From: an uncultured Candidatus Rokubacteria bacterium
GTDB lineage: Bacteria > Methylomirabilota > Methylomirabilia > Rokubacteriales > CSP1-6
DNA length: 64,000 bases
Direction: 5' to 3'
NCBI GenBank assembly: GCA_963734175.1
Contig: CAVTGC010000010.1
Coordinates: 252,976 to 316,975 of the forward strand
Shown here: one piece after another, positions 10,621 to 63,700 of the stretch
How the letters are laid out: the number at the start of each line of letters is the position of its first letter
Numbering within the stretch: position 1 is the first letter of the stretch
The notes under the pieces: generated by a model
Databases searched by the model: none
The model's input: the letters and a program-made list of their open reading frames with translations, nothing else
Told to the model about the DNA's origin: nothing
Made by a program: the position numbers and the translations under genes

Positions 10621-10655
10621 GATCGCGTCGTAGGACCAGTGAATCCAGCTCAAGG

Positions 10656-12362: not shown

Positions 12363-12761
12363 ATGAGCGCATTGGAGCAGGCCCTCGGTGGGCCGGCGAT
12401 CGAGGTGGTGGCGAAGGCGACACGGCGGCGGTTCACGTTGGAGTACAAGCGGAAGGTGGTCCGAGAGGCCGACGCCTGTAAGACACCGGGCGCGATCGGG
12501 GCGCTGCTGCGGCGGGAGGGACTGTACTCCTCGCACCTGACGACGTGGCGGGCGGCGCGGGAGCGGGGCGAGTTGGTCGGGGCGCCGAAGCAACGCGGGC
12601 CGGCGCGGCGGGTCGTCGATCCGCGGGACAAGAAACTGGCCGAGCAAGCGCGGGAGATCAGCCGGTGGCAGAAGCGTGCCGAGCGAGCTGAGGCGCTGGT
12701 GGCCCTGCAAAAACAAGTGGCGGCGTTGCTGGGAACGCCGTTGGTCGACGAGACCTCGTGA
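12363..12761 (+). CDS. IS3-family transposase OrfA (HTH)
   Basis: MSALEQALGGPAIEVVAKATRRRFTLEYKRKVVREADACKTPGAIGALLRREGLYSSHLTTWR… Its stop overlaps the orfB ATG (GTGATGG). Confidence 0.9.
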   Translation: MSALEQALGGPAIEVVAKATRRRFTLEYKRKVVREADACKTPGAIGALLRREGLYSSHLTTWRAARERGELVGAPKQRGPARRVVDPRDKKLAEQAREISRWQKRAERAEALVALQKQVAALLGTPLVDETS

Positions 12762-36769: not shown

Positions 36770-37276
36770 GCCAATTCAGCGTGCAACCCTTCGGCCAACG
36801 GCTGCTTCATGCTCAGGCCTGGGGCGTTCAGTCGTTTTACGCGGGCCACGATCTGCTAGAGGTGATGGCATGGAGCTTCATGGCTTTGCGAGGACCGGTC
36901 GCTGCTCGATAGGGCGTTCCGAGTCTGCCGAAGCAACGTCTCCTAGAAGTCGTCGAATCTGACGCGGAGTCAAACGCGTACGCGCGGAGCCTATCGAGGA
37001 GAGCTGTGAAAAATCGAAAGCTTTCTCTCGACAGCGATCCGGCTACTATGAGCACCTAGAGAAATGGCCGATGAGCGCCAATTCCTTCAGACCGGCAAGA
37101 ACGTCGTCGCACAATCGCAGATCAGGGGCGCAAGGTGGTGGAGGTTTCCTAGCGCAGCCACACTACGTCATCGTCACCGAGGCCGAGGACAAGGCCCGAA
37201 GCAAGTAAACCCCTAAGCTCTCTCACTTGCTTCTCAGGCTGTCCTCAAGCGGCGGTGCTCAAGGTCACCTCTAGCT

Positions 37277-38444
37277 TGTCCAGACTCGAAATGGTGTTGA
37301 CACTTCCGCGGTCCCAGAGTGGTGGTGAATGAGCTCATTGTGTGGCCACGCCCCAAACGAGCGCGGCCGGGGTACGACCGCGGACGCGATAGCCTTGGTG
37401 AGGCCGGTCGTGGTTGTAGTAGCGCATGAAGCCGTCGAGGGCTCGCTGCAGCGTCGCGCGACGCGTGAAATAGCGGCGACGGAAGACGACGCGCCAGAGT
37501 TCCTGGAGAATCGTGCCCTGCAGGCGTTCGACGAAGCCGTTGGTCCAGGCATGACGCGGTTTCGTGCGCGTATGGCGGAGGCGGAGCTCGCGGCAGGCCC
37601 CATCAAAGGCGCCCTTGAATTCCGGGCCACCATCGGTGAGCACGCGCCGCACCGGCCAGCCCGCGCGCTGGAAGTGCGGCACCACGACCTCGCGCAGGAA
37701 GCGGGCGGCGGCGGCCGCGTCGTGGGCGGGCAGCAGGCCGGCCAGCCCGTAAGAGGTCGCCGCGTCGCACGCGGTGATCTGCCACACCTTGCCCACGCCT
37801 TTGAGGTTGCCGATGTAGAAGGTGTCCAGACACACCAGCTGGCCCGGCTCCGTGGCCTCGACGTGCCGCGTGCGGCCGTGACGGGCCCGCCAGAGCTTCT
37901 CCCGGGTGCGGTCCGTGAGCAGCCCCGCCGTCCGGGCGGCCTGCTGCTCGAGCACCGTCAGGCGCGCTCGGCGCGTGGCCAAACCGACTCGGCGGAGCAG
38001 CCGCTGCACGGTGCTGGGCGCCAGGCGGATCTGCCAGGTGCGCGCCAGGTAGGCCGCCAGGCGGCGACACCCCCAGGTCGCGGCGCTGATCGCAATCCCC
38101 AGCACCAGCCGTTCCACCTCCGGCGGGGTCGCCACCGGCCGCCCCGCGCCGGCGCGCTGCCGCCGGGGATGAACCCCCTCGACGCCATAGCGTTCCAGCC
38201 GTTGGCGCCAGCGGTAAAACAGGGTCCGGGAGATGCCCAGCTCGCGGCAGACGGCGCTGACGTTGCCGAGCACCTGCGCCCGCTCGATGACGCGCAGGCG
38301 CATTCCGTGTACGCTCTCGTCGAGGGTCATCGGTCCGTCCTCCCACAGTGGTTCCCTTGGCGGGGTAAGCACTCTGGGAAAGATAGAGCCGATGGCCTTC
38401 TTGTTCGTTCACGGCAAGTGTCAACACTATTTCGAGTCCGGACA
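37277..38444 (-). mobile_element. IS481-family insertion sequence, copy A, 1168 bp
   Basis: Terminal inverted repeats TGTCCaGACTCGAAATgGTGTTGACAC… Flanked by the 8-bp direct repeat CTCTAGCT (37269-37276 and 38445-38452). Confidence 0.9.
37335..38372 (-). CDS. IS481-family transposase (HTH plus rve/DDE integrase core), 345 aa
   Basis: …LFYRWRQRLERYGVEGVHPRRQRAG…QLVCLDTFYIGNLKGVGKVWQITACDAATS…VLTDGGPEFKG…HTRTKPRHAWTNGFVERLQGTI…YNHDRPHQGY…. Confidence 0.9.
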   Translation of the reverse strand: MLTPPREPLWEDGPMTLDESVHGMRLRVIERAQVLGNVSAVCRELGISRTLFYRWRQRLERYGVEGVHPRRQRAGAGRPVATPPEVERLVLGIAISAATWGCRRLAAYLARTWQIRLAPSTVQRLLRRVGLATRRARLTVLEQQAARTAGLLTDRTREKLWRARHGRTRHVEATEPGQLVCLDTFYIGNLKGVGKVWQITACDAATSYGLAGLLPAHDAAAAARFLREVVVPHFQRAGWPVRRVLTDGGPEFKGAFDGACRELRLRHTRTKPRHAWTNGFVERLQGTILQELWRVVFRRRYFTRRATLQRALDGFMRYYNHDRPHQGYRVRGRTPAALVWGVATQ

Positions 38445-38534
38445 CTCTAGCTCGCATGATGCCCAGCTTTGCTGGTCCGAAGTGAGCGCCAGCCGGACCC
38501 AGCCGGATCATCATCATGGATGAGCAGGCGCGCA

Positions 38535-39231: not shown

Positions 39232-39736
39232 GCGCCGATTCCTCCAGAGGCAACGCAGAGTAGCAAAAACGGCCGCGAGCGTAGGATCGTCTGCCCCCCT
39301 CCGGACGCCACACCGCTCTTCGCCGCCGCCGGCTCGACGCGCTGACGACCCCGGCTCCCCGACCTGGCGATCAAACCACTTCTTCGATCCGATCAGCCGC
39401 GACATCCGGTTCGAGCAGCCTGTTGAACGGAAGCGGCCAGGGCGGGAGGTGCGTCGGCGGCGTCAGCCTGAGAGGCTCGCGACTCGCCTTTCTGCAGTAA
39501 TGACGATGCTGGTGCCATGTCGCGCGATGCTGCCCGGATGCTGCGAGTATGCCCACGTCTCTGGCCCAGCAGTACCATGGCATCGCAGCCGCCATCTTAC
39601 GCGGTCAGCTATCCGGTGCGAGGTGGCGGTTCACTCTGACTCGTGAAACGCGATCCATGCGCCCTCTCTGCCAACATGAGTGAGACAGTGACCCCCTGGG
39701 AGTTTAGAGTCGAGGGCGAGGCAGGATCGGAGAGCG

Positions 39737-40135
39737 ATGAGCGCATTGGAGCAGGCCCTCGGTGGGCCGGCGATCGAGGTGGTGGCGAAGGCGACACGGC
39801 GGCGGTTCACGTTGGAGTACAAGCGGAAGGTGGTCCGAGAGGCCGACGCCTGTAAGACACCGGGCGCGATCGGGGCGCTGCTGCGGCGGGAGGGACTGTA
39901 CTCCTCGCACCTGACGACGTGGCGGGCGGCGCGGGAGCGGGGCGAGTTGGTCGGGGCGCCGAAGCAACGCGGGCCGGCGCGGCGGGTCGTCGATCCGCGG
40001 GACAAGAAACTGGCCGAGCAAGCGCGGGAGATCAGCCGGTGGCAGAAGCGTGCCGAGCGAGCTGAGGCGCTGGTGGCCCTGCAAAAACAAGTGGCGGCGT
40101 TGCTGGGAACGCCGTTGGTCGACGAGACCTCGTGA
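39737..40135 (+). CDS. IS3-family transposase OrfA
   Basis: Identical to 12363..12761. Confidence 0.9.
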   Translation: MSALEQALGGPAIEVVAKATRRRFTLEYKRKVVREADACKTPGAIGALLRREGLYSSHLTTWRAARERGELVGAPKQRGPARRVVDPRDKKLAEQAREISRWQKRAERAEALVALQKQVAALLGTPLVDETS

Positions 40136-44248: not shown

Positions 44249-44825
44249 CCTGGAGCCAATCCTCGCGGGTGTCTAGTGTGTGGGCTGCGCGCCTTCTAAA
44301 CGTACGATCTACCGATCTTGGTCATATTGCAATCACCATAGTGGTCGATTCCTCCGGGCCGACGGGCCCATAAGCCGTTGCTGATAGTCAAAGATCGGAG
44401 AGCGTCTCCGATAAGATCTCCGACACCAATACCTGAGCTCTGCCATGTTCCCCAGCTCCCTGCTAATCTCCGGCGCGTCTCCATGGTCCGCGGTAGGAGA
44501 GGCTTCACCTGTGGCCATGCCCCCAAAACCGAAGACGCGATGAAGCGAACTAGAGCTGTAGCAGACCTCCGGGAGCGGATATGGCTGCGTGCCCATGTCA
44601 TGTCGCGCTCGGTCTCAGGCGATCCCTGCGTCGTATCGCGCTCAGACCGTGGCGGGCCGCTGGATGGTCACCATATCGCCCAGGACGTCGTCAGTGAATC
44701 GATCGCCGACCTGGATCTCCATTTGGCACCATCGTGTTCGTCAGGGTTTCCACGTCCTGCGCCACCGGGGCTTTTGGCTCGCCGTAAACCGGACCCGATT
44801 TCCTTGGACATCTCACTGGCTAGTG

Positions 44826-45993
44826 TGTCCGGACTCGAAATAGTGTTGACACTTGCCGTGAACGAACAAGAAGGCCATCGGCTCTATCTTTCCCAGAGTG
44901 CTTACCCCGCCAAGGGAACCACTGTGGGAGGACGGACCGATGACCCTCGACGAGAGCGTACACGGAATGCGCCTGCGCGTCATCGAGCGGGCGCAGGTGC
45001 TCGGCAACGTCAGCGCCGTCTGCCGCGAGCTGGGCATCTCCCGGACCCTGTTTTACCGCTGGCGCCAACGGCTGGAACGCTATGGCGTCGAGGGGGTTCA
45101 TCCCCGGCGGCAGCGCGCCGGCGCGGGGCGGCCGGTGGCGACCCCGCCGGAGGTGGAACGGCTGGTGCTGGGGATTGCGATCAGCGCCGCGACCTGGGGG
45201 TGTCGCCGCCTGGCGGCCTACCTGGCGCGCACCTGGCAGATCCGCCTGGCGCCCAGCACCGTGCAGCGGCTGCTCCGCCGAGTCGGTTTGGCCACGCGCC
45301 GAGCGCGCCTGACGGTGCTCGAGCAGCAGGCCGCCCGGACGGCGGGGCTGCTCACGGACCGCACCCGGGAGAAGCTCTGGCGGGCCCGTCACGGCCGCAC
45401 GCGGCACGTCGAGGCCACGGAGCCGGGCCAGCTGGTGTGTCTGGACACCTTCTACATCGGCAACCTCAAAGGCGTGGGCAAGGTGTGGCAGATCACCGCG
45501 TGCGACGCGGCGACCTCTTACGGGCTGGCCGGCCTGCTGCCCGCCCACGACGCGGCCGCCGCCGCCCGCTTCCTGCGCGAGGTCGTGGTGCCGCACTTCC
45601 AGCGCGCGGGCTGGCCGGTGCGGCGCGTGCTCACCGATGGTGGCCCGGAATTCAAGGGCGCCTTTGATGGGGCCTGCCGCGAGCTCCGCCTCCGCCATAC
45701 GCGCACGAAACCGCGTCATGCCTGGACCAACGGCTTCGTCGAACGCCTGCAGGGCACGATTCTCCAGGAACTCTGGCGCGTCGTCTTCCGTCGCCGCTAT
45801 TTCACTCGTCGCGCGACGCTGCAGCGAGCCCTCGACGGCTTCATGCGCTACTACAACCACGACCGGCCTCACCAAGGCTATCGCGTCCGCGGTCGTACCC
45901 CGGCCGCGCTCGTCTGGGGCGTGGCCACACAATGAGCTCATTCACCACCACTCTGGGACCGCGGAAGTGTCAACACCATTTCGAGTCTGGACA
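44826..45993 (+). mobile_element. IS481-family insertion sequence, copy B, 1168 bp
   Basis: Flanked by the 8-bp direct repeat GGCTAGTG (44818-44825 and 45994-46001). Confidence 0.9.
44898..45935 (+). CDS. IS481-family transposase
   Basis: Identical to the copy A protein. Confidence 0.9.
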   Translation: MLTPPREPLWEDGPMTLDESVHGMRLRVIERAQVLGNVSAVCRELGISRTLFYRWRQRLERYGVEGVHPRRQRAGAGRPVATPPEVERLVLGIAISAATWGCRRLAAYLARTWQIRLAPSTVQRLLRRVGLATRRARLTVLEQQAARTAGLLTDRTREKLWRARHGRTRHVEATEPGQLVCLDTFYIGNLKGVGKVWQITACDAATSYGLAGLLPAHDAAAAARFLREVVVPHFQRAGWPVRRVLTDGGPEFKGAFDGACRELRLRHTRTKPRHAWTNGFVERLQGTILQELWRVVFRRRYFTRRATLQRALDGFMRYYNHDRPHQGYRVRGRTPAALVWGVATQ

Positions 45994-46031
45994 GGCTAGT
46001 GGTGGGATGAGCAGCAACCAAGGAGGTTGGA

Positions 46032-47275: not shown

Positions 47276-47416
47276 CCATGATGCTGGGGCTCACCCTGAC
47301 AATCGAGGGCCACAGATGTCAGAGGCGAGAACGCTGAAGCTCACAATTGCGGCTTGCTCAGTGTCCAGGAAACCGGGTGCGGTACAGCCGCGGCGCTGAG
47401 GCTCAGCCCTTCCGCT

Positions 47417-48385
47417 TCACTCGATCACCTGATCGGCCCGCAGCAGTAGGGACTGCGGGATCGTCAGGCCGAGCGCTTTGGCCGTCTTGAGGTTGACGAC
47501 GAGTTCGAACTTGGTGGCTTGCTCGATGGGAAGATCCGCCGGCTTGGCGCCTCTGAGGATCTTGTCGACATAAATTGCCGCTCTTCGCAGTTGCTCGAAG
47601 ACGTTCGCGCTGTAAGACATGAGCCCACCCGCCTCTACAACGGATCGATCGGTATACATCGCCGGCCAGCGCTTCCGCGCGGCAAACTCGACGATGCGCC
47701 GTTGATATGCAGTAGTGATGGCCGTGGGAAAGAACACTGCACCGGCGTGTTGGGAGATCGCGGCCTCGAGAGCCTTCTCCAGTTCCGCTGATTCTCGCAC
47801 GCGGACGGACTCGACCTGGAGGCTCAGGTTTTGGGCGGCCGATTCCACCGCCTGGCACCTCCTGACCGTCGCGGCATTCGCTGGATCCCAGGCGCAGGCG
47901 ACACGCTTAAGACCTGGGACCATCTCCTTGACCAGCTCAAGGGCCTTGCCATCGGCCTCCGGGCCGACAAGTGAGAGGCCTGTGGTGTTGCCGCCCGGCT
48001 GCGCAAGGCTTTTGACCAAGCCAGTCCCGACGGGATCAGCGCTGACGCTGACGATCGGAATGTTCAAGGCTTGCTGGGCCGCGCGAGCCGCCGGCGTTGT
48101 GAACGTGACGATCACATCGACGCGAGCGCGGATAAGATCCGCGACTAGGCCAGGGAGGCGGTCGCCACGTCCTTCGGCGCTGCGATTCTCGACGACGACG
48201 TTCTTGCCTTCGACGTAACCGAGATCGCTCAGACCCTGGCGGAGCGCGTCGAGTTCACCCCCGCCCGCCATGCCCCATTGAAGGAAGCCTATCCGCCAGA
48301 GCTTCCCCACCTGTTGCCCCCCAGCGGCGAACGGCGTAGCAACCGCACCAGCCAGTGAGGTCAGCAGGAAGCGGCGGCGGTCCAC
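47417..48385 (-). CDS. PF04392-family ('ABC transporter substrate-binding protein') periplasmic protein with a Tat-type signal, paralog 4 of 4
   Basis: MDRRRFLLTSLAGAVATPFAA… ; …DVIVTFTTPAARAAQQALNIPIVSVSADPVGTGLVKSLAQPGGNTTGL… ; …TIPQSLLLRADQVIE. Confidence 0.8.
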   Translation of the reverse strand: MDRRRFLLTSLAGAVATPFAAGGQQVGKLWRIGFLQWGMAGGGELDALRQGLSDLGYVEGKNVVVENRSAEGRGDRLPGLVADLIRARVDVIVTFTTPAARAAQQALNIPIVSVSADPVGTGLVKSLAQPGGNTTGLSLVGPEADGKALELVKEMVPGLKRVACAWDPANAATVRRCQAVESAAQNLSLQVESVRVRESAELEKALEAAISQHAGAVFFPTAITTAYQRRIVEFAARKRWPAMYTDRSVVEAGGLMSYSANVFEQLRRAAIYVDKILRGAKPADLPIEQATKFELVVNLKTAKALGLTIPQSLLLRADQVIE

Positions 48386-49380
48386 TACTCGATGACCTGA
48401 TCCGCCCGCGCCAGCAGCGATGGCGGGATCGTTAGGCCGAGGGCCTTCGCGGTCCTCAGGTTGATCACGAACTCGTACTTTGTGGGCTGTTCGATGGGAA
48501 TGTCTCCGGGCTTCCCGCCCCGGAGGATTTTGTCCACGAAGGTCGCTGCACGATGGTGAAGATTGGGGAGACTAGCGTTGTATGACATCAGACCACCAGA
48601 ATCCACATAGTGCCGCCAGGGGTAGATGGCGGGAAGGCGATGCTTCAGTGCCAATACCACGACCTGCCCACGATTCGGTTCGAGGACAACCGGATCCGGT
48701 CGGACAACAAGGGCACCGATGCGGGCTCCGTCGATCGCCCTGAACGCCTGTGCAATCCCCTCGGGCTTGGTGACCTCGAAGCTCTGCATCTCCAGACCGA
48801 GCGCACGGGCGGCGGCGTCAATCGCCTTCGCTCTCGATCCGGCGGGGTCAGGGACCGCCATCGGATTCACGAGGGTCGCCACGCGTACGAGGCCCGGAAC
48901 CGTCTGCTTGAGTAGCTCGAGGTGTTTCCCCTCTATCTCCGCCTGAGTCAGCCAGGCTATACCGGTGATGTTCCCTCTTGGCCGTGCCAAGTCCCGGACG
49001 AAGCCCTGCCCAATCGGGTCGGCGACGGCCGACATGACGATCGGAATCCTGGTGGTCGCCCGGCGGGCCGCTTGGGCTGCCAAGCTGCCGCGGACGACGA
49101 TGATGTCGACCTTCAGCCGCACCAGCTCGGTCGCTATGTCCGGCAACCGTTCGGATTTACCTTCTGCGTACCGATACTCGATGATGACATTCGAGCCCGG
49201 CGTCCAGCCCAGCTCGCGGAGGCCCCGCTCGAACGGCTCGCGAGCCAGTGTGGGCGGTTCGCCCAAGCTGCCACCGCTCAAATGTCCAATCCGGGCGGCC
49301 TTCGCCTGCTGCGCCTCCGCCCCGAGCGGCCCGGCCAGGGCACCAGCCACCGAGGTCAGCAGGAAGCGGCGCCGGTCCAC
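48385..49380 (-). CDS. PF04392-family substrate-binding protein, paralog 3 (GTG start)
   Basis: VDRRRFLLTSVAGALAGPLGAEAQQ…IVVRGSLAAQAARRATTRIPIVMSAVADPIGQGFVRDLARPRGNITG… The start overlaps the stop of paralog 2 (TAGTG). Confidence 0.8.
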   Translation of the reverse strand: MDRRRFLLTSVAGALAGPLGAEAQQAKAARIGHLSGGSLGEPPTLAREPFERGLRELGWTPGSNVIIEYRYAEGKSERLPDIATELVRLKVDIIVVRGSLAAQAARRATTRIPIVMSAVADPIGQGFVRDLARPRGNITGIAWLTQAEIEGKHLELLKQTVPGLVRVATLVNPMAVPDPAGSRAKAIDAAARALGLEMQSFEVTKPEGIAQAFRAIDGARIGALVVRPDPVVLEPNRGQVVVLALKHRLPAIYPWRHYVDSGGLMSYNASLPNLHHRAATFVDKILRGGKPGDIPIEQPTKYEFVINLRTAKALGLTIPPSLLARADQVIE

Positions 49381-50366
49381 TACTCGATCACCTGATCCGC
49401 CCGCGCGAGCAGCGACGGGGGGATCGTGAGGCCGAGGGTCTTGGCAGTCTTGAGGTTGATCACCAGTTCGAACTTCGTCGGTTGCTCGATTGGCGTGTCG
49501 GCAGGCTTGGCGCCCTTGAGGATTCGGTCCACGTAAGTGGCGGCCCGGCGCGACATCTGCGTGAAATCCGGACCGTAGGCCATGAGACAGCCTTCCACGA
49601 CGAACAGTGTCGTCTCGCACGTCATCGGCAGGCGGTGGGCGGCGGCCAGCTCGATAAGCTTCGCCCGGTAGGTTGCGAGGAACGGTGAGGCTATCTGGAA
49701 CACCGCATGCGCCCCATTCTTTTTGGCGGACACTAACGCCGGGGTGAAATCCTCGGGCCGCTGAACCTCGAGCCGCTGGGTCTGCAAGCCGAGCCCCTGC
49801 GCCGCCGCCTCGACCGCGCGGACCCCGGTGTCCCCGCCGCCGCCGCGGTCCCAGAGGAGGGCGACTCGCCGCATGCCGGGCACGACCTCCCTGAGCAGTT
49901 CGAGGCGTTTTGTCCCCAACTCGGAGTCCTGAAAGGCTAGGCCTGTGATGTTCCCCCCTGGACGCGCCAAACTCTTGACGAAACCGAAGGCCACCGGCTC
50001 ATGCACGATCGCCATGACGATCGGAACCGTTGCGCTCGCCTGCTGTGAGGCGCGGATCGCCTGGGGACCCCACGCCACGAGCACGTCGACGGGGAGCGCA
50101 ACGAGCTCGGACGCGATCTTCGGAAATTCGTCCAGCCGTCCCTCGCCCCATCGCGTCTCGATCACGATCGTCTGCCCCTCGATCCACCCCAGTTCTCGAA
50201 GTCCGTCGCGGAGCGTCTTGACCAGCAACTGGAACTGATCACCCGCGCTGGAGCCCGGGGCGAAGACCCCGACGCGGGGCGTCTTCGCTGCTTGCTGCGC
50301 CTCGGCGACAGGCGGCGCAACGAGGGCACCGGCCAGCGAGGTCAGCAGGAACCGGCGACGGTCCAC
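49380..50366 (-). CDS. PF04392-family substrate-binding protein, paralog 2
   Basis: MDRRRFLLTSLAGALVAPPVAEAQQ… ; …TIPPSLLARADQVIE. Confidence 0.8.
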   Translation of the reverse strand: MDRRRFLLTSLAGALVAPPVAEAQQAAKTPRVGVFAPGSSAGDQFQLLVKTLRDGLRELGWIEGQTIVIETRWGEGRLDEFPKIASELVALPVDVLVAWGPQAIRASQQASATVPIVMAIVHEPVAFGFVKSLARPGGNITGLAFQDSELGTKRLELLREVVPGMRRVALLWDRGGGGDTGVRAVEAAAQGLGLQTQRLEVQRPEDFTPALVSAKKNGAHAVFQIASPFLATYRAKLIELAAAHRLPMTCETTLFVVEGCLMAYGPDFTQMSRRAATYVDRILKGAKPADTPIEQPTKFELVINLKTAKTLGLTIPPSLLARADQVIE

Positions 50367-51355
50367 TACTCGACTACCTGATCCGCCCGCGCCAGGAGTG
50401 ATGGCGGGATTGTGAGGCCGAGGGCTTTGGCGGTCTTCACGTTTACGATTAACTCGAACTTCGCGGGTCCCTCCATTGGGAGATCGCCTGGCGCGGCACC
50501 TTTGAGGATGCGGTCGACGTAGCCCGCGGCGCGCCGATACATATCGGCACCATCGGGCCCATGAGCGATCAACCCGCCCGCGCGCGCGAAGGTCGGCGAC
50601 CCGAAGGAGGCCAGGCGATGCTGAAGGGCGAGACTGGCAATCTGAGCCCCGAGTGGATTCAGGAGCGACGTGTTCGGCACAATGACGGCCTGCGCTCCCT
50701 GCTGTGTCAAGGCGGCGAATGCCTGGGCGAGGTCGGCCGGGCGCCGCACGGGCACGCGACGGACTGCTAAGCCCAACGTTCGCGCGGCATCATCCTCCTT
50801 TTGGCGCCACACTTCGGCAACCTCGGGCCGCTCGATGCCAGGGACGTCCAGCCAGCCCACGTCTGAAGCTCCGGGGACGACCTGCTTCACCAGCTCCAGC
50901 CATTTCACGGTCGATGCGAACTCTTCGAGTACGAGCCCCGTGATGTTCCCGCCCGGACGGGAGAGGCTGGCGACGACACCGCTAGCCACCGGGTCACCCA
51001 CCACTGCGATGACGACGGGAATCGTGGCTGTCGCCTGCTTGGCTGCGCGGGAGCCGGCCGAGCCGTGCGTCACGATGGCATCGACGTTAAGGCCGACCAG
51101 CTCCTTTGCCAAAGTTGGCAAGCGGTCGAGTTTGCGCTCGGCCCAGCGGTATTCAATGACGAGGTTCTTGCCTTCCTCGTATCCCAGAGCCTGGAGGCCT
51201 TGGCGCAGTGCAGCCGTTTGGCGGGTAAGGTCTCCGGGAGAGGTTTGGCCGAGAAATCCGACCCGATAGACTCGCTCTGCCGTTTGTGCCTCAGCGGCGA
51301 GCGGTGCAGTCAGCGCTCCCGCCAGCGAGATTACGAAGAAGCGACGGCGGTCCAT
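50366..51355 (-). CDS. PF04392-family substrate-binding protein, paralog 1
   Basis: MDRRRFFVISLAGALTAPLAAEAQT… (internal Met of ORF 50366..51454) ; …TIPPSLLARADQVVE. Confidence 0.8.
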   Translation of the reverse strand: MDRRRFFVISLAGALTAPLAAEAQTAERVYRVGFLGQTSPGDLTRQTAALRQGLQALGYEEGKNLVIEYRWAERKLDRLPTLAKELVGLNVDAIVTHGSAGSRAAKQATATIPVVIAVVGDPVASGVVASLSRPGGNITGLVLEEFASTVKWLELVKQVVPGASDVGWLDVPGIERPEVAEVWRQKEDDAARTLGLAVRRVPVRRPADLAQAFAALTQQGAQAVIVPNTSLLNPLGAQIASLALQHRLASFGSPTFARAGGLIAHGPDGADMYRRAAGYVDRILKGAAPGDLPMEGPAKFELIVNVKTAKALGLTIPPSLLARADQVVE

Positions 51356-54955: not shown

Positions 54956-57690
54956 TTGCCTATGCGGCACACGTTCGTGGGGTCAATCTCTGCGATGTTG
55001 GTAGACTACCGCCGGCGATTCGAGTGCCATACCCACATCATGAGCGAGAACAACACTGGACCTGCGCGCCGGAGGAAGCCCTCTTCTGCGGCTCGCAAGG
55101 CTCTTCAGCGCGAGGGGGTTCGTAAAGAGGGTCGTAAAGAGCGTGAAGCCGGGCAACCGGCCGCGCGCCTCGTATCAGCAACCGAAGCGCGCAGCCGCGC
55201 GATCCGCGAGCAGGTGATCTTCGGTGTCGCAGTAACCGATCTCAATGGGCACTTCCTCGAGGTCAACCCAGCCTACTGTCGAATCACGGGCTACAGCGAA
55301 CAGGATTTGCTCGCCACCGACTTTTCGTCGATCACCCATCCGGACGACCGGGCGGAGAACGCGATCCTGCGTGGCCAAGCGCTTGCCGGGCAGATTCCTG
55401 GCTTCGTTGTCGAAAAGCGATACGTGCGCAAGGATGGCGTACATGTCTGGGTACGCAACGCTGTCTCTCTCATCCGCGATGCCAAAGGGCGCGCGGACAG
55501 CTTTTTAGCGCTGACCTATGACCTGACTGACCGCAAAGAGATGGAGCAAGAGCTTCGGCGGCGCAAAGACGAGCTGACTTCATTCTTCGAGCATGCCAGC
55601 ATCGGCCTGCACTGGGTCGGGCCGGACGGCATTGTCCAGTGGGCGAACCCGGCCGAACTGGCGATGTTGGGTTACGCCAGGGAGGAATATGAGGGGCGCC
55701 ACATCGCCGAGTTTCATGTCGACCAAGACGTCATCACCGACATCCTGGACCGCCTGGCTCGCGGCGAACCCTCAAACAATACGAGGCCCGACTCCGGCGC
55801 AAGGATGGGTCGATCCGGTACGCGTCGATCGATTCGTGCGTGCTGTGGGAGGAGGGCCGCTTCCTTCACACCCAGTGCTTTACGCGCGACATCACGGAAC
55901 AGAAGCTGGCCGATGAAGCCATGCGTCGGCGGACCGCGCAGTTCGAAACCCTGCTCAACGAAGCGCCGCTCGGCGTCTACCTCGTCGATGGCGGTTTCCG
56001 CATTCGGGAGGTCAACCCGACCGCCCTGCCTGTCTTCGGGAATATTCCCGATCTCATCGGCCGCGATTTCGACGAGGTGATCCACATCCTATGGCCCAAC
56101 GCCTATGCGAATGAGATCGTCGAGCGGTTCCGGCATACGCTGGAAACTGGAGAGGCCTATATCGTGCCGGAGCATGTCGAGGAGCGTCGTGACCGCGGCG
56201 TCCGCGAGGTATATGAGTGGCAGATCAGCCGCACCCCGCTGCCGGACGGCCGGCACGGCGTCGTCTGCTATTTTCGGGATATCTCCGCCCACGTGGCCGC
56301 CCGCGAGGCCTTGCGGGCGTCTGACCGCGCGAAGGACGAGTTTCTAGCGATGCTGGGGCATGAACTCCGCAACCCACTCGGCGCGCTGGCGAGTGCTGCG
56401 CGTCTCCTTGATCTCGAGGGGCGGTCACCGGAGGCGGCAGCGCGCGCCCGGGGCGTAATAGGCCGGCAGCTTGATCACCTTACGCGCCTAGTGGACGATT
56501 TGCTCGACGTGAGCCGCGTCACGACGGCCAGGGTGCGGTTGAGCCAGCGCCCACTTGACCTCAGCGCATCCGTGAAGAGCGCGGTCGAAACGCTTCGGGC
56601 CCGGGGTACGCTCGACCGCCACAATGTCATCTTTGAGGGGCAGCCGGTATGGGTTCAAGCCGATGAGACCCGGATCGAGCAGATCGTCTCGAATCTGGTC
56701 GGGAATGCGGTGAAGTTCACCCAATCGGGTGGCACTGTGTCGGTGAGCGTGGAGGGCAATGACGCGGAAGCGGTGCTCGCGGTCAAAGACACCGGTGTCG
56801 GCATCGCGGCCGACATGATTCCGCGGATCTTTGATCTCTTTGTTCAAGGCGAGCGGAACCTTGACCGTTCGCAGGGCGGGCTCGGCATCGGTCTTACACT
56901 CGTGCGTCGTCTTGTCGAGCTCCACGGCGGGACGGTCGAGGCGGCAAGCGGCGGTCCGGGGAGGGGTAGCGTAGTCACTGTGCGGCTGCCTGCGATTCCA
57001 GCTCTCCCGGTTCCGAAAACGGCCGCAGCCGCGGTGAAGCCGCAGGAGAGCGCTCCCAGGCGTGTGCTGATCGTCGAAGACAATGACGACGCACGCGAGA
57101 TGATGCGTGTCGTGCTAGAGCATGACGGGCACGAGGTACATGAAGCGGCCGACGGGCCGGGTGGCCTCCAGGCGGCACTGGCGTTACGGCCGGATGTCGT
57201 GCTACTGGATGTCGGGCTGCCTGGACTCGATGGCTATGAGGTGGCGCGGCGCATCCGGGCCGATGCTGGCCGCCAGATCTATCTGGTGGCGCTTACGGGA
57301 TATGGCCAGCCCGAAGACCGCCTACGTTCGACGGAGGCCGGCTTCGATGAGCATATCGTAAAGCCGGTCGATCCCGCGCGACTGGTATCCCTACTCGCTC
57401 GCGCGGACAGCCGAGGGGGCCAGCAGCACACGCCACAGGTTAGGCGCTTGCCCGAATTTCCCCCGGGATCTGGACGGTTTCGTTGGCACCGACAAATGCC
57501 AAGGAGGAACCATCATGAGTCGCCTGGTCGCGTCCACTCTCGGCACCGGAAGCACAACGGCGTGGGCACAACCCCCGAAGGACCCGCCCAAGGCCCAGCC
57601 GAAGGCCCCGCTGCCGACGAGGGCGTTGCTCGACATCAACAGCGCCTCGGCCGACGATCTGAAGGCGCTGAAGGGCATCGGCGAGGCTGA
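54956..57690 (+). pseudogene. Hybrid sensor histidine kinase (3 PAS, HisKA, HATPase_c, REC) with a frameshift near 55790. The 3' end is uncertain: the receiver ends around 57405 and the ORF tail runs on.
   Basis: ORFs 54956..56080 and 55840..57690 together encode PAS blocks (…FGVAVTDLNGHFLEVNPAYCRITGYSEQDLL… ; …IGLHWVGPDGIVQWANPAELAMLGYAREEYEGRHIAEFH… ; …APLGVYLVDGGFRIREVNPTALPVFG…), HisKA (…EFLAMLGHELRNPLGALAS…), HATPase (…DTGVGIAADMIPRIFDLFVQGE…GGLGIGLTLVRRLVELHGGTV…) and REC (…RVLIVEDNDDAREMM…VLLDVGLPGLDGYEV…). Confidence 0.75.
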
Positions 57691-57879: not shown

Positions 57880-58430
57880 TGAAGGACGGGGGTTGGCGGA
57901 CGCAGGCGTAGCCGGAGCGCCGCCTCGATCTCGGCGGAGGCCTTGTTGCGCTGAAACAGCTCGCGGATCTGGTCCCGGGTCGCTCGAGGACTGCGAATCC
58001 CCAACACTCGGCTCCCGGCTGCTACCGACGACCGCGGCCGAGTCCCGTCAACGCGTAATGAAACCGCGCACTTGAATTCTGCAAGTTCGATCAGGTCCCG
58101 TTGGGGCCACCACCGCCTTTGGTAACAACACGCTGGTGACCAGTCGCTCCAGCGTGCACCGCAGCTTCACCTCCACCTCACCATCCAGCGGTGTGAACAC
58201 GATGCGTCCGTCGATCAGTTTGCGGAGCATCTGTCGCGCCTGCTGCGCGTGACGGCGCAGCATCGTTCGCCACTCGTGCAGGTAGCCGACCAGTCGTGCT
58301 CCAGGCGCCGCAGGTCTGTGGCCGCGACTGCTGGACGTTCAAGCTGGGCCAGCTCGGCCACGACCTGAGCACGCCCGCTGACGCCTGTCTGCTCGATGGG
58401 TTTGCGGACGGAAATGGCGGCAATCATCAT
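57880..58430 (-). pseudogene. Disrupted minus-strand ORF. Pieces are 58215..58430, 58048..58263 and …TRDQIRELFQRNKASAEIEAALRLRLRPP… Identity unknown.
   Basis: Three consecutive minus-strand reading frames with plausible protein-like sequence but no recognisable motif. Confidence 0.15.
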
Positions 58431-59476
58431 TCCGGGACCTCGGCTTGGGTTTGTGAGACGTGCAGGCGGAGATATTTGATGGCCAAGTTTCGCGCATCTG
58501 CCACCGGGAGCGTCGGTTCATCCACCGGCTCACCATGTGCAAGATGGTGGCGGTGCCTAGCGACCCCTCCAAAGGTCTCCAAATCATCATCCGCTGTGTC
58601 CGGCGCTAGCTGAAACGCGATCGCCGCGAACCTATCGCGTAGCCCGTACTTGTCTTTCATGACGTCGCGGATCCGATTGAGATACTGCTGTCTCGCCGCG
58701 CTTTGGGTTTCACCTGCGATCCTCCTGAAGAATCTCGCGTCATATTCCGCAAACTGCTTGTTGACGAAGATCTCCAGTGCAGTCCATGCGGCTAAAAACG
58801 CGCGTAGCTTGTCATCGTCGGTATTCATGGAAGCTTGGATTAGCGACTGAACTCGTGATAGCGACTGGTCCGCGGACAAAGCTCGATATAGCGGAAGTAA
58901 GCCTGCCAGTTGATCGGCGGTGGGAGGTCGAGAGACGAACAGGGTAGCGGCCCCACCGAGCAATTTGAACGAATACACCGGCTTACCGTCATCCCGAAAA
59001 TACACGACCTTGTCTGTGATCCTCGTAATCGTCTGCAAGTCGAACCGGGCGCATAGAGAGAGATTCACGGCAGTGAACAAGCGGTCGAACTTGTTGCGTA
59101 TCGTCTCTGCATCTCCCATGTCGAACCCGACGACGAACTCGACATCCTCGTGTGCTCGGGACGCGTCGAAGTTCTCCATTTCCCCTTCGCCAGTGAGCAC
59201 GACATAGGGTCCCGGTTGTTCTCGTCTGCGCGCTGCGCGAATCTTTTCGACTGTTTCGTTCAGGCGCCCCTGAGTCTGTTCGCCTCGTAAGGCGCCCCTG
59301 AGCATCAACTGTGCAAGCGCGAGGTGGCGGTCAGCATGCAGTGCCCACTCGTCGGCGTCAGCCGTCAAGACGCATCTGAGTCCCTGAGTGTCGTCACGCA
59401 GCAGGACGACGGAGGGTGTGTCCGCGGGCAACGAAAGGCCCTTTGCCACATGAATGGCGGTGTACTGGTATTTCAC
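58427..59476 (-). CDS. Hypothetical protein, 349 aa. No recognisable domain. Encoded in a locally AT-richer segment.
   Basis: Clean ORF with a GTG start (VKYQYTAIHVAKGLSLPADTPSVVLLRDDTQ…). Its C-terminus contains …FGGVARHRHHLAHGEP…. Confidence 0.55.
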   Translation of the reverse strand: MKYQYTAIHVAKGLSLPADTPSVVLLRDDTQGLRCVLTADADEWALHADRHLALAQLMLRGALRGEQTQGRLNETVEKIRAARRREQPGPYVVLTGEGEMENFDASRAHEDVEFVVGFDMGDAETIRNKFDRLFTAVNLSLCARFDLQTITRITDKVVYFRDDGKPVYSFKLLGGAATLFVSRPPTADQLAGLLPLYRALSADQSLSRVQSLIQASMNTDDDKLRAFLAAWTALEIFVNKQFAEYDARFFRRIAGETQSAARQQYLNRIRDVMKDKYGLRDRFAAIAFQLAPDTADDDLETFGGVARHRHHLAHGEPVDEPTLPVADARNLAIKYLRLHVSQTQAEVPE

Positions 59477-59811
59477 TTCGGCCGAGTCTCGGAGGCGCGG
59501 TGGAGCGCCAAGAATGGCTTGCTCTTTGCGCGCTGCCAGGCGGTATGAACCCGCGCCAGCTCGCGGCAGAAGAACGCGACCTGGTCGGCACCGGGCCGCA
59601 ACAGGCCAAGACGCTGGGCGAGTTCGAAGAACCCGTGCCCAGGGATGTTGTCCTGCCTGTGCACCACGATGGCGGTCAGCAGGGGGCCACCCTGCTGGTG
59701 CTCGTGCGAGATGGCGGTGAGAATATGTCGGATTGCGTCGCGGTCGGCCGGGCTGTCAATGCCCAGGCCGGCCAGTGCTGCGATGGCGCTGTATGTGGTC
59801 GTTCCCTAGAG

Positions 59812-60979
59812 TGTCCAGACTCGAAATGGTGTTGACACTTCCGCGGTCCCAGAGTGGTGGTGAATGAGCTCATTGTGTGGCCACGCCCCAGACGAGCGCG
59901 GCCGGGGTACGACCGCGGACGCGATAGCCTTGGTGAGGCCGGTCGTGGTTGTAGTAGCGCATGAAGCCGTCGAGGGCTCGCTGCAGCGCCGCGCGACGAG
60001 TGAAATAGCGGCGACGGAAGACGACGCGCCAGAGTTCCTGGAGAATCGTGCCCTGCAGGCGTTCGACGAAGCCGTTGGTCCAGGCATGACGCGGTTTCGT
60101 GCGCGTATGGCGGAGGCGGAGCTCGCGGCAGGCCCCATCAAAGGCGCCCTTGAATTCCGGGCCACCATCGGTGAGCACGCGCCGCACCGGCCAGCCCGCG
60201 CGCTGGAAGTGCGGCACCACGACCTCGCGCAGGAAGCGGGCGGCGGCGGCCGCGTCGTGGGCGGGCAGCAGGCCGGCCAGCCCGTAAGAGGTCGCCGCGT
60301 CGCACGCGGTGATCTGCCACACCTTGCCCACGCCTTTGAGGTTGCCGATGTAGAAGGTGTCCAGACACACCAGCTGGCCCGGCTCCGTGGCCTCGACGTG
60401 CCGCGTGCGGCCGTGACGGGCCCGCCAGAGCTTCTCCCGGGTGCGGTCCGTGAGCAGCCCCGCCGTCCGGGCGGCCTGCTGCTCGAGCACCGTCAGGCGC
60501 GCTCGGCGCGTGGCCAAACCGACTCGGCGGAGCAGCCGCTGCACGGTGCTGGGCGCCAGGCGGATCTGCCAGGTGCGCGCCAGGTAGGCCGCCAGGCGGC
60601 GACACCCCCAGGTCGCGGCGCTGATCGCAATCCCCAGCACCAGCCGTTCCACCTCCGGCGGGGTCGCCACCGGCCGCCCCGCGCCGGCGCGCTGCCGCCG
60701 GGGATGAACCCCCTCGACGCCATAGCGTTCCAGCCGGTGGCGCCAGCGGTAAAACAGGGTCCGGGAGATGCCCAGCTCGCGGCAGACGGCGCTGACGTTG
60801 CCGAGCACCTGCGCCCGCTCGATGACGCGCAGGCGCATTCCGTGTACGCTCTCGTCGAGGGTCATCGGTCCGTCCTCCCACAGTGGTTCCCTTGGCGGGG
60901 TAAGCACTCTGGGAAAGATAGAGCCGATGGCCTTCTTGTTCGTTCACGGCAAGTGTCAACACTATTTCGAGTCCGGACA
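59812..60979 (-). mobile_element. IS481-family insertion sequence, copy C, 1168 bp
   Basis: Flanked by the 8-bp direct repeat CCCTAGAG (59804-59811 and 60980-60987). Confidence 0.9.
59870..60907 (-). CDS. IS481-family transposase
   Basis: Differs from copies A and B by 2 amino acids (WRHRLERY ; RRAALQ). Confidence 0.9.
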   Translation of the reverse strand: MLTPPREPLWEDGPMTLDESVHGMRLRVIERAQVLGNVSAVCRELGISRTLFYRWRHRLERYGVEGVHPRRQRAGAGRPVATPPEVERLVLGIAISAATWGCRRLAAYLARTWQIRLAPSTVQRLLRRVGLATRRARLTVLEQQAARTAGLLTDRTREKLWRARHGRTRHVEATEPGQLVCLDTFYIGNLKGVGKVWQITACDAATSYGLAGLLPAHDAAAAARFLREVVVPHFQRAGWPVRRVLTDGGPEFKGAFDGACRELRLRHTRTKPRHAWTNGFVERLQGTILQELWRVVFRRRYFTRRAALQRALDGFMRYYNHDRPHQGYRVRGRTPAALVWGVATQ

Positions 60980-61080
60980 CCCTAGAGCCTGCGAAATACG
61001 TTTCAGTTCTTCGTATATCGGGCCGTGTAGCTGCCCAGTCGGCACCTCAGGCGTCGGCATGGAGTGGCTCCTGTTGGACG

Positions 61081-62202
61081 TCAAGGGGCACGCCGGCCAG
61101 ACCGCAGCCGACGCCCGCGACCATCCACGACGCGCAGCCGCGGTGAGGCTCCATTTGAGGGTAGCGTCTTAGGAGCGGCGGCGTGCATCTCGATTACTTC
61201 TCTGGCAAGCATAGGCGACCAGTTGAGGTCTTCTGCGAGCCGCTTGTAGTCGATCGGGTTTCCATAGAGCACTTCAGCGATCTTACGGACTGCGCGCGGC
61301 CGTTCGGCCGGAAGCGGATGCGGCTCAGCGGTGCGCCAACGGTGCAGGCCAATCTGCTCCATCAAGTAACGGTACTGGCGCTCATGGACAATTCCCAGGT
61401 CTCTTGCCCGCCGGATCAGCATCTGAATCGAAACCCCCCAGCGTGGCTTTAGGGTGGCCAGACTCGTCAGAGTGACGGGCGTCGAGATCTCCTCGCGCAT
61501 TGCCGTCTCGGGGCAAAGAAACTCCGCGGCAAACGTGTCAGCCTGCTTTTCTAGATCCGCGATACTGCCTCGTAGGGGCTGGTGCATTACGAGATGCCCA
61601 ATCTCGTGGGCGACGGTATATCGCTGCCGCTCGCCGGGTGCGCCGGCCAGCAGCACGATCACCGGGCGCTGCGCCTCAGGTCCAGCCCAGGCGGAAAAGG
61701 CGTCGCAGGCTGACAACGTAAGAGACACCGCGAGGACCAGCACCCCGGCACGCTCCACCACGTGAAGAAGGTGTGGGATCGGCGTGTTGGGGGCCAGCCC
61801 AAGCATGGCCCGCGTCACGGCTGCGGCGAGTTTTGGCTCCTCGGAGAGACGTGGTAGCTGAAGCGGAAGCCCGCGCACCCTTTGTTCGAGTTTTTGGACC
61901 GCCTCGAGGGTGAGGTGAGCGTAGACGCGTGCTTGGTCGCGTGGCTGGGCTCGAAGGTCGGCCCGAGCGCGGAAGAGGAGCGTCCCCAGCGGGAATTCAC
62001 CCGATGTTGGTGGTTCCTCGAAAAACGAAATGGGCAGCCCGGTGGTTACACTGAACGCGGTGATGAGCTGGAGGGACGGCGTGCGGAGGCCTCGCTCGAC
62101 TTGCGTCACTGCCGGCTGCGTGACGCCCGCCCGGTCTGCCAACTCGCTTTGCGTTAGCCCCCGAAGCTCTCGCGCCTGGCGAATCCGTTCTGGATGGAAC
62201 AC
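61081..62202 (-). CDS. XRE-family HTH fused to an ImmA/IrrE-family (COG2856) zinc metallopeptidase, 373 aa
   Basis: N-terminal HTH …IRQARELRGLTQSELADRAGVTQPAVTQVERGLRTPSLQLI… ; HEXXH motif …RYTVAHEIGHLVMH… ; …EKQADTFAAEFLCP…. The GTG start overlaps the upstream gene's stop by 1 nt (TAGTG). Confidence 0.8.
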   Translation of the reverse strand: MFHPERIRQARELRGLTQSELADRAGVTQPAVTQVERGLRTPSLQLITAFSVTTGLPISFFEEPPTSGEFPLGTLLFRARADLRAQPRDQARVYAHLTLEAVQKLEQRVRGLPLQLPRLSEEPKLAAAVTRAMLGLAPNTPIPHLLHVVERAGVLVLAVSLTLSACDAFSAWAGPEAQRPVIVLLAGAPGERQRYTVAHEIGHLVMHQPLRGSIADLEKQADTFAAEFLCPETAMREEISTPVTLTSLATLKPRWGVSIQMLIRRARDLGIVHERQYRYLMEQIGLHRWRTAEPHPLPAERPRAVRKIAEVLYGNPIDYKRLAEDLNWSPMLAREVIEMHAAAPKTLPSNGASPRLRVVDGRGRRLRSGRRAP

Positions 62203-62945
62203 TACTGCTTGACCTGTCCTTGCTCTTCCTCGCCGTCACTCTCGATATCAAGGTCTGGCGCTGTGCTCTCGGGGCCGACACCCTCGGTTGGCTCGGCAAG
62301 CAAAGCATCGGGACCAGTGCTGCCGGTGGCGGCAGGGGCTGGGGGTGCAGCTTCGATGCCCAGATCCGGCTCTGTGATTTCGTCACTGGCGGACGACACG
62401 CCGTGCGCCGGATGAGGAATCTCAATTGGGCCCCAATGCAGCGTAACGGTGCTACCTGCTGAGGCCGGGCAGGCGAGGTGGAGAGCCACGAACTTGTATG
62501 CCGCGGTCACCTCCCAGAGCGCCAGCAGGTTGATGATGCCATCCGCCGCGATTGGGGATTCCACGTCGGGAAACTGAAATGTCAACTGTTGAGCGTAGAA
62601 GTCCTGGAGGATCTTTGAGCCACCCGGCGGTCGGACGCCAGCGGGCGAGTACTTTTGAAATCGGAGATGGTAGCGCCCGGCCAGTAGTGAGATGCCGTTG
62701 TTTGCCAGCGGCTCACGCTCCACGTCGTCCTCAGCTGCGTGGAGGCCATCCGCCTCGAGGCGCTGGATTGCCAAGTAGCGCACGATATTGTGCGCCAAGG
62801 CATTGTTCACTGACTCGTGCCGGTCATCGAACCAGCCTCGGACGTCCTGACAACCCGATTCGAATGCGGCGTAGACGGCTGGCCAGAGGTGCGACAGTTC
62901 GGCGCGCACATCCTCGAACTCAGGGAGCGGGCCTGGCGTTGGCAT
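62202..62945 (-). CDS. Hypothetical 247-aa protein translationally coupled upstream of the HTH-ImmA/IrrE gene
   Basis: MPTPGPLPEFEDVRAELSHLWPAVYAAFESGCQDVRGWFDDRHESVNNALAHNIVRYLAIQRLEADGLHAAEDDVEREPLANNGISLLAGRYHLRFQKY… Acidic Gly/Pro-rich C-terminus. No recognised domain. Confidence 0.55.
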   Translation of the reverse strand: MPTPGPLPEFEDVRAELSHLWPAVYAAFESGCQDVRGWFDDRHESVNNALAHNIVRYLAIQRLEADGLHAAEDDVEREPLANNGISLLAGRYHLRFQKYSPAGVRPPGGSKILQDFYAQQLTFQFPDVESPIAADGIINLLALWEVTAAYKFVALHLACPASAGSTVTLHWGPIEIPHPAHGVSSASDEITEPDLGIEAAPPAPAATGSTGPDALLAEPTEGVGPESTAPDLDIESDGEEEQGQVKQ

Positions 62946-63530
62946 GGCATTTTATAACCTACAAGGTGTGGTGTAGTCAAGCCTCCCCGAACCCTCGTTG
63001 CAGGGCGGCGCCCACACCGGTCGCCATACGCCCTCCCGGAAGGCGGCGAGAAGCGCGTCGTTGTGCCGCTCGCTCGTCACGCCGGTCTTGTTCGCTTCCT
63101 GCCATAGCTTCGCGCGTCTCGGGCGCCGTCCACCCATCGCTGGCTGCCGTACTTCGCCAGCAGTTAGAGCGGCAGCCGAGATTCGAAAGAGCACATAGCT
63201 CAGATCCCAACCGCCTGGGTTTCGTTATGGGCCGTTACGCGGCCGGGATACTCAGCCGGACGTCACGATCCCAAAAGCCGCCAAACCAGTGGGGCGACGA
63301 CCGAACTTTCAGAAATCAAAGTCCTCCAAGGTGTCTAAACAGAGGATACCTCGTCGGTTGGAAGAAGGGCGATCGACCAGTCGGCGTCGTCCGACGTTAG
63401 CGAACTCGCACAATTCCTCGGTTTTCGACCAAGCCAAAGGTATCGAATCCCGCCGGGGTCACCACATTGATTATCTTTTCCTTTTGGTCCCCGAGTTTTA
63501 GTGCCGTGGGGTAGGGATGTGAACCCCTGT

Positions 63531-63700
63531 TCATGCCCCGCTCACGTCAAAGACGCTTACTACCTTCTCCAGATCGCCCTGGGTCAGCCTCGTATAGAGC
63601 GTAGTGGTCTGGATGTCGGCATGGGCCCGCCACTTCCCTTCCGCGATGTGGCTCAGCGACAGCCAATAACCCCTGGCGCTCAACGCCGACCGTGAAGCCC
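63531..63700 (-). pseudogene. Possible tyrosine-recombinase C-terminal remnant
   Basis: …GKWRAHADIQTTTLYTRLTQGDLEKVV… resembles the integrase C-terminal …LGHADI.TT.IYTH…E.L… region. Weak. Confidence 0.25.

Follow-up and report, generated by a model that had tools for sequence, protein, structure and literature searches.

We analysed a two-gene operon in a 64,000-nucleotide (nt) stretch of DNA, here called the window, from an uncultured Candidatus Rokubacteria bacterium (contig CAVTGC010000010.1, positions 252,976 to 316,975; coordinates below are those of the window unless a related locus is named), and conclude that it is probably a functional toxin-antitoxin (TA) or abortive-infection module of the RosmerTA type. 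Both genes lie on the minus strand. The first, identified as an open reading frame (ORF) and through profile searches, is an rmrT-like toxin gene (62202-62945) with an ATG start that encodes 247 amino acids (aa). The second, rmrA (61081-62202), has a GTG start and encodes a 373-aa antitoxin and regulator, in which PADLOC, PHROG and Pfam searches point to an XRE-type helix-turn-helix (HTH), an M78 zinc peptidase and a C-terminal helical region.

RosmerTA systems combine diverse toxins (RmrTs) with a common antitoxin that has a protease domain (Ernits et al., PMC10440598); they protect against phage, and attempts to obtain a delta-rmrA mutant failed (10.1101/2022.05.11.491447). Judged by its sequence, the locus is a diverged member of this already described system, with a toxin of a type that has been catalogued but is uncharacterised. 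An earlier sequence-only reading of this DNA had proposed a horizontally acquired defence, toxin or immunity module, and that interpretation is supported by the identity of RmrA, by the membership of the toxin among the RmrTs and by relatives found beside integrases, transposases and a restriction-modification (R-M) methylase; one correction it needs is that the module already has a name. That RmrT is toxic and is neutralised by RmrA would follow from the literature on the RosmerTA family. We put the chances that this module confers measurable phage defence at about even.

The two proteins and their families

The PADLOC models for RosmerTA, a system that comes from Millman et al. 2022, comprise PDLC03929-03941 for RmrT and PDLC03943-03956 for RmrA. 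The 373-aa protein matches 14 of the RmrA models over essentially its whole length, the best being PDLC03949 (E 8.7e-70; residues 1-331 against model positions 1-327 of 363), and PHROG 2439 matches it over its full length (E 5.7e-72). Pfam places HTH_3 at residues 7-60 (62023-62184, minus strand; E 8.5e-14) and Peptidase_M78, the ImmA/IrrE type, at residues 150-266 (61405-61755, minus strand; E 6.4e-18), which bears out the fusion of an XRE HTH with an ImmA/IrrE peptidase carrying VAHEIGHLVMH that the sequence-only reading had described. This motif occupies residues 197-207, with HEIGH encoded at 61594-61608, and the E..A..F....L.PE block downstream of HEXXH is kept as FAAEFLCPE. From these matches the 373-aa protein is identified as a full-length RmrA, the antitoxin of RosmerTA.

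The HEXXH motif (AHE..H.V.H) is invariant across all nine complete partner RmrAs of the related loci that are introduced below. The truncated RmrA at L003 819-1664, which accompanies the 35%-identical toxin homologue P0005, carries HDLGH in place of HEXXH, and its peptidase may be altered or inactive. The closest solved chain to the window RmrA is PDB 9vzy_A (E 4.9e-7 over RmrA residues 6-281), a 393-aa HTH protein of the same architecture. It is a recent deposit, named 'HTH cro/C1-type domain-containing protein', and may be the first solved structure with an RmrA-like HTH-M78 fusion.

The 247-aa protein had been described as lacking any recognisable domain. This holds for direct searches, since it has no match in Pfam, NCBIfam, PHROGs or PADLOC (the last at E <= 0.1), and profiles of 5 and of 64 toxin family sequences found no match in PDB sequence searches. 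The protein is nonetheless a diverged member of a large family and no orphan. A word-indexed search of 5.8 billion proteins recovered only four relatives, at 35-54% identity, while an exhaustive HMMER search with the alignment of those few returned 695 cluster representatives at E <= 1e-3 and 428 at E <= 1e-10, giving a family of about 700 clusters at 50% identity whose members are mostly about 210 aa long.

The link to RosmerTA runs through these relatives. PADLOC RmrT model PDLC03939 is matched by 52 of 64 sampled family members (best E 3.8e-13), and neither Pfam nor NCBIfam matches any of the 64; the clade closest to the window toxin (P0005-P0007) has no PADLOC RmrT match at E <= 1. A reverse profile was built from six proteins, for each of which a match to PDLC03939 had been established separately. 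Its score for the window toxin is 147 bits (E 1e-44, over model positions 5-219 of 222), and in a decoy control the best of 452 window ORFs reached 0.9 bits. On these sequence comparisons the homology of the window toxin to the PDLC03939-type RmrTs is secure but transitive, and the 247-aa protein is best classed as a diverged branch of that type. The PADLOC check proposed by the sequence-only reading thus succeeded for the 373-aa protein, which matches the RmrA models, and failed for the 247-aa protein, which matches no RmrT model; since the toxin falls below every RmrT model of PADLOC v2, defence finders based on hidden Markov models (HMMs) would miss the system. A scan of a genome collection yielded no locus with the A1 alignment and four loci with the A6 alignment, and a tblastn search with toxin family members gave no match among sequenced plasmids and phages.

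Operon structure and conservation of the pair

ORF reading finds both genes of the pair intact. They meet in a TAGTG (62200-62204, minus strand), in which the TAG stop of the toxin gene (62204-62202) and the GTG start of rmrA (62202-62200) have one base in common, an arrangement that points to translational coupling. The ORF coordinates and the sequence agree here with the earlier description of a two-gene operon with a 1-nt overlap and the regulator downstream. Toxin upstream and antitoxin downstream is also the order throughout Table S11 of Millman et al.

We read 11 related loci, seven on metagenomic contigs (L001-L007) and four in metagenome-assembled genomes (MAGs; L008-L011) of Thermodesulfobacteriota, Nitrospira, Gaiellales and Pyrinomonadaceae, respectively, so that the loci span at least four phyla. 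In all 11, tblastn finds an RmrA homologue with 39-68% identity that starts where the toxin gene stops or shortly beyond it. A twelfth contig has an identical gene layout by annotation only. Conservation of the pair elsewhere had been set beforehand as the test on which the sequence-only reading might fail; its recurrence in every related locus puts the pairing far beyond chance. The junctions overlap in nine of the 11 loci (as ATGA, TGATG, TAATG, GTGA or a 35-nt overlap), and gaps of a few nt separate the genes in the other two. The toxins of L004 and L005 had looked like orphans because the gene caller left their rmrA gene uncalled. That candidate interpretation was rejected when tblastn revealed an intact RmrA ORF (338 aa) overlapping the toxin gene by 35 nt, at L005 8187-9203 and at L004 from 10662 to the contig end.

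The neighbourhoods of several relatives are those of mobile or defence DNA, as the defence-island check suggested by the sequence-only reading anticipated. The pair adjoins a tyrosine integrase with an excisionase-like HTH in L006, an integrase and a macro-domain gene in L009, and IS21-like and Mutator-family transposases in L008, while in L010 a type I R-M methylase (HsdM) and a PNP_UDP_1 gene are near it. Directly downstream of the L010 pair (7908-11634) lie genes for a SAP-domain protein, the PNP_UDP_1 (phosphorylase superfamily) protein and the HsdM methylase, and this region of the Gaiellales MAG is a probable defence island. RmrA homologues encoded by phages are likewise preceded by a partner gene of 200-235 aa, often beside integrases.

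The operon appears to have its own promoter, close to consensus. Just upstream of the toxin gene the coding strand reads TTGACT (62980-62975), an 18-nt spacer, TATAAA (62956-62951) and the 5 nt ATGCC before the ATG, so that the promoter-like element spans 62946-62980 on the minus strand and the whole arrangement, start codon included, 62980-62943. A generic promoter and terminator scan found nothing, missing the promoter because the last base of its -10 box is A; the site was first spotted by inspection and then recovered when the loci were compared. The strict pattern TTGAC-N17-19-TAnnn[AT] precedes the toxin gene in nine of the 11 related loci (shuffle probability 0.0015-0.019 per locus), and close variants do so in the other two. 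Since the -10 box lies just 3-10 nt from the start codon in seven loci, a leaderless mRNA is implied, often in the family and in the window. In L002 (49-135), a 29-residue N-terminal extension annotated on the homologue P0003 (278 aa) contains the promoter TTGACC-18-TATAAA, which indicates that the true start is an internal ATG and the extension an annotation artefact.

In most loci the -10 box falls inside a palindrome of 13-17 bp. The 17-bp palindrome TGCTTATAATATAAGCA is identical in L004 (about 9957-9973) and L011 (about 5985-6001), which belong to unrelated organisms, and this identity suggests a putative conserved operator sequence of RmrA. Its inner 13 bp form the palindrome of L010, CTTATAATATAAG, and further palindromes cover the -10 box in L008 (CCAATATTATTGG), L007 (GTAATAATATTAC), L003 (CTCATATTATGAG) and L001 (GGCTATAAAATAGCC). 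The window counterpart, GGTTATAAAATGCC, is degenerate, with one substitution and one deletion relative to L001. Because a palindrome over the -10 box is what would be expected of the operator of a dimeric XRE HTH protein, autorepression by RmrA would be the natural mode of control in the family.

Toxin fold and candidate peptides

Conservation and structure prediction together define a toxin core of residues 1-180 (62406-62945, minus strand), in which three N-terminal helices are followed by a beta-sheet. A core-only AF2 model from 17 sequences (pLDDT 84, pTM 0.82; an earlier model from five sequences had pLDDT 62) has three N-terminal helices, a beta-hairpin (85-98), a short helix and three long strands. 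The structural check that the sequence-only reading had proposed therefore gave a confident core, with no significant fold match in the PDB (Foldseek E >= 0.26). Over 159 family members R56 and W144 are conserved in 100%, G84 and K98 in 99%, S110, Q119 and P160 in 97%, and R95 in 90% (K/R in 96%).

From the model we judge, with moderate confidence, that the fold resembles that of restriction endonucleases. The toxin might be an active DNase of the PD-(D/E)xK type with a non-canonical active site, which would cut DNA after its release from RmrA. The sequences argue otherwise: there is no conserved acid before K98, N82-N83-G84 stands at the position of the 'PD' motif, position 145 is D or E in only 70% of members, and the catalytic D...(D/E)xK of the PD-(D/E)xK nuclease superfamily is absent from the toxin family. 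Pfam and PDB sequence searches, the one with the 64-sequence profile included, give no nuclease signal, and the Foldseek values are those just cited. The EcoRV-like PD-(D/E)xK type II restriction endonucleases (SwaI, NaeI, BglI, SfiI and EcoRV) have 5-9% identity to the toxin, with no significant Foldseek match, and differ from it in that it has neither the PD...(D/E)xK signature nor a partner methylase. Since the catalytic acids are not conserved, nuclease activity is doubtful and canonical nuclease chemistry unlikely. We would put an actively cutting toxin, by whatever active site, at well under an even chance. For the toxic step, canonical DNA cleavage seems to us slightly less likely than an effect on DNA or the replication machinery that is non-catalytic or non-canonical.

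Beyond the core, the last 70 or so residues are acidic and predicted to be disordered, in agreement with the acidic low-complexity tail noted earlier (residues 181-247, 62205-62405, minus strand; pLDDT below 50, net charge about -15). Counted as 71 aa with a net charge of -15, the window tail is twice as long and as acidic as the family median (38 aa, -7). It contains two D-L-x-I elements, DLGI (residues 194-197, 62355-62366) and DLDI (residues 231-234, 62244-62255), both on the minus strand. Of 71 members, 46 have a D[LI]x[LIVF] peptide 12-25 residues past a PHP motif, where shuffled tails would give 4.5, and otherwise unrelated RmrTs have terminal peptides resembling P-x-I-[DE]-[LI] (PDIDLDI in E. 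coli, PQIDLSE in Gordonia Howe and PSIEIGD in Mycobacterium prophiGD44). Such a shared tail peptide could serve RmrA, the partner common to many toxins, as the handle for recognising or cleaving them.

A second peptide follows Q119 in a loop of low model confidence: QLTFQF (residues 120-125, 62571-62588, minus strand) resembles a clamp-binding motif. QLSLF is the classical clamp-binding pentapeptide, QLTFQF aligns to QLSLF, QYNLF and EISLF in a related RmrT group, and 41 of 134 family members fit a QLxLxF-type pattern after Q119. The alternating pattern would suit a buried beta-strand equally well and occurs in 17% of shuffled proteins, and a RipA-type homologue has no QLxLxF-type motif; we regard the clamp-binding assignment as speculative. 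Both peptides can be joined in one proposal, in which RmrTs of the PDLC03939 and PDLC03938/33/40/34 types would be non-cutting restriction endonuclease folds that dock QL-x-[LF]-x-F or QLSLF into DnaN and poison replication, with the D-L-x-I of the tail as the common RmrA handle. We offer this as a long shot. If true, DnaN targeting, just described for the unrelated RipA, would extend to much of the RosmerTA superfamily.

In the mechanism that we propose for the RosmerTA-type module, the operon would be repressed by its own product RmrA, dimers of which would sit on the palindrome that covers the -10 box. RmrA would also hold RmrT inactive after translation, for which we favour direct binding or cleavage via the D-L-x-I peptide of the tail. 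Phage infection or another stress would inactivate or titrate RmrA, and the free RmrT would arrest the cell, acting on DNA or the replication machinery through a restriction-endonuclease-like scaffold that appears to have lost the PD-(D/E)xK acids while retaining an invariant basic and polar cluster (R56, R95, K98, S110 and Q119).

Several points weigh against taking the locus as a working RosmerTA module. The window toxin scores below every PADLOC RmrT model (E > 0.1), so that its membership is transitive, and neither the verified E. coli RmrT (PDLC03935) nor the RipA-type toxins (PDLC03931/NF052238) have a detectable relation to it. The toxin sheet has no conserved acidic residue (none above 70%), the residue two before K98 being hydrophobic. 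The palindrome over the window -10 box is degenerate compared with those of the closest relatives, and autorepression may be weak here. Finally, we found no report of an experiment, on phage protection or otherwise, with any RmrT or system of the PDLC03939 type.

Genomic setting and relation to known systems

The sequence-only reading had placed the pair in an IS-flanked island, between copy C of an IS481 element and an integrase remnant. The insertion sequence is confirmed, as an IS481-like element outside the module (59806-60985, minus strand; repeat families D4 and I2, transposase with HTH_32 and rve) that lies downstream, about 96 nt from the rmrA stop. It is present on that side only; the right flank of the pair holds the 3' portion of a histidine-kinase gene that continues past the window edge. 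The element, of about 1.2 kb, occurs in three copies in the window (37266-38465, 44805-46004 and 59806-60985), the middle one inverted, and their 98-100% identity implies recent transposition and a potential for rearrangement between copies.

The integrase remnant is unverified: the candidate at about 63531-63690 (minus strand) has no Pfam match and no recombinase match in a PDB sequence search. It and another short ORF fragment, at 58048-58263 (minus strand), resemble recombinase C-termini, and a HADIQTTTLYTRL-like motif lies on the right flank, all without support from Pfam or PDB sequences. An integrase remnant and a serine-recombinase-like fragment as the boundary of a mobile element were thus not confirmed by either search. 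The window has no tRNA gene, Rfam has no match in 57.5-64 kb, and no phage or ICE (integrative and conjugative element) genes and no intact integrase flank the pair within the window.

Beyond copy C lies the 349-aa ORF (58427-59476, minus strand) that the sequence-only reading had reported in AT-richer DNA, and its GC content is indeed 55-59% against a background of about 64%. The toxin-RmrA pair, at 62-65%, matches the host, which implies that the module, unlike the AT-rich 349-aa gene, is not a recent arrival. The 349-aa ORF has no Pfam, PADLOC, NCBIfam or PHROG match and belongs to a conserved hypothetical family of 20 clusters with full-length homologues at 30-49% identity; the source annotation starts it later, giving 257 aa. 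One homologue adjoins an SNF2-family helicase, a DUF5677 protein and a small HTH gene, a setting like that of a defence island.

This setting bears on the possibility that the pair is the leftover switch of a prophage or ICE, with an ImmR/ImmA-like repressor and anti-repressor fused into one protein and the 247-aa protein an accessory factor or cargo that is not toxic. ICEBs1, prophages and CBASS are indeed controlled by M78 peptidases that have XRE partners, the 373-aa protein gives PADLOC sub-matches to capP (1.6e-16) and capH (5.7e-8), homologues encoded by phages lie near integrases and repressors, and an insertion sequence and decayed DNA are close to the window pair. The sub-matches are much weaker than those of the RmrA models, which fit the full length far better (E 1e-70 against 1e-16 for capP); the pair has no phage or ICE genes around it, the integrase remnant is unsupported, and among its relatives the pair travels as an isolated cassette in unrelated contexts across phyla. 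We consider such a switch very improbable.

Other features of the window were recorded in passing. A PAS, histidine-kinase and receiver gene (54956-57690, plus strand) appears to be broken into two long ORFs, which differ in frame and share 55840-56080; a sequencing error, a frameshift or decay to a pseudogene may explain this. A tandem array of four units, each about 1 kb long and apparently a paralogous gene (47341-50578; 61-74% identical), a perfect tandem duplication of 136 nt (992-1263) and a dispersed 300-nt repeat (12287-12586 and 39661-39960; 100% identical) have no connection to the module.

RosmerTA is common, but what most of its toxins do is unknown. The locus offers leads on one large type of toxin, in the form of a core that may resemble that of restriction endonucleases without the catalytic acids, a conserved and putatively leaderless promoter whose -10 box lies in a candidate palindromic operator, and short conserved peptides. 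The D-L-x-I and QLxFxF peptides could explain the target of the toxin and how one antitoxin family neutralises many unrelated toxins. The PDLC03939-type branch reaches soil and sediment lineages, as seen from the Nitrospira, Gaiellales, Pyrinomonadaceae and Thermodesulfobacteriota MAGs.

The window module resembles known RosmerTA systems in its two co-directional genes with the toxin upstream, an antitoxin of about 370 aa that fuses an XRE HTH to an M78 zinc peptidase, a toxin of about 200-250 aa without a Pfam domain, and its occurrence on mobile or defence islands. It differs in a toxin that lies under every RmrT HMM, is tied to PDLC03939 via intermediates and has a doubled acidic tail. Among the CHARACTERISED RmrTs, the experimentally verified E. 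coli OLC-716 RmrT matches PDLC03935/03932 and not PDLC03939; a relationship of the window toxin to this protein was rejected (hhalign probability 0.06). The RmrT of Gordonia phage Kita depolarises the membrane (PMC10440598), a mechanism that is not transferable by homology to the window type.

RipA/RipB (Spr1630/Spr1629) of S. pneumoniae is a Rosmer TA with the operon logic and antitoxin architecture of the window module. The target of its toxin is the DnaN sliding clamp, suppressor mutations fall in the hydrophobic pocket of the clamp, and control of RipA requires ClpX (10.1101/2025.09.02.673660). A relationship of the window toxin to RipA was rejected, since NF052238 matches neither it nor any of 64 relatives and hhalign finds no similarity; the DnaN target and the ClpX dependence are therefore not transferable by homology. 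The equivalog cutoffs of the RipAB models are 125 bits (NF052238) and 335 bits (NF052239, 'spr1629 family repressor/antitoxin'), and the window antitoxin scores only 139 bits on the latter (E 2e-40), whereas a Staphylococcus locus used as a positive control (L025) scores 181 bits for the toxin and 480 bits for the antitoxin.

RipAB also illustrates how a TA pair of the same architecture could serve a role other than phage defence, as an addiction or stabilisation module of a decayed mobile element or as a stress-signalling switch. It controls competence through replication stress. In Tn-seq, rmrA behaves like the gene of an essential antitoxin; several tests of RosmerTA homologues found protection to be narrow or absent, and the window locus lies in a patch with an insertion sequence and an AT-rich orphan gene. 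Set against this, the RosmerTA systems of E. coli and of Gordonia phage Kita protect against phages and one relative of the window pair adjoins a type I R-M methylase; a single module could also fill both roles. We think a purely non-phage role possible, but rather unlikely.

Outside its own family, the nearest relatives of the window toxin are the PDLC03938/03933/03940/03934 types of a Zymomonas plasmid and of Enterococcus, Lacticaseibacillus and E. coli (Tritos) phages. Against the window family these give an hhalign probability of 73% (P 3e-5, 113 columns, about 16% identity), with K98, P160 and a Q-x-x-L-F segment aligned and the N-terminal helices unaligned, and their own RmrA partners are closer to the spr1629 type (187-223 bits). 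Actinophage toxins give a weaker signal, collinear over the full length (P 0.0017).

The ImmR/ImmA (ICEBs1), DdrO/IrrE and CapH/CapP pairs likewise use an M78 peptidase and an XRE HTH repressor as a signal-responsive switch. There, peptidase and repressor are made as separate proteins, and genes are induced when the former cleaves the latter. The window module departs from ImmR/ImmA-type switches of mobile elements in that no intact integrase or phage genes flank it and the HTH and peptidase are fused, and the partner that it would control is the toxin encoded upstream.

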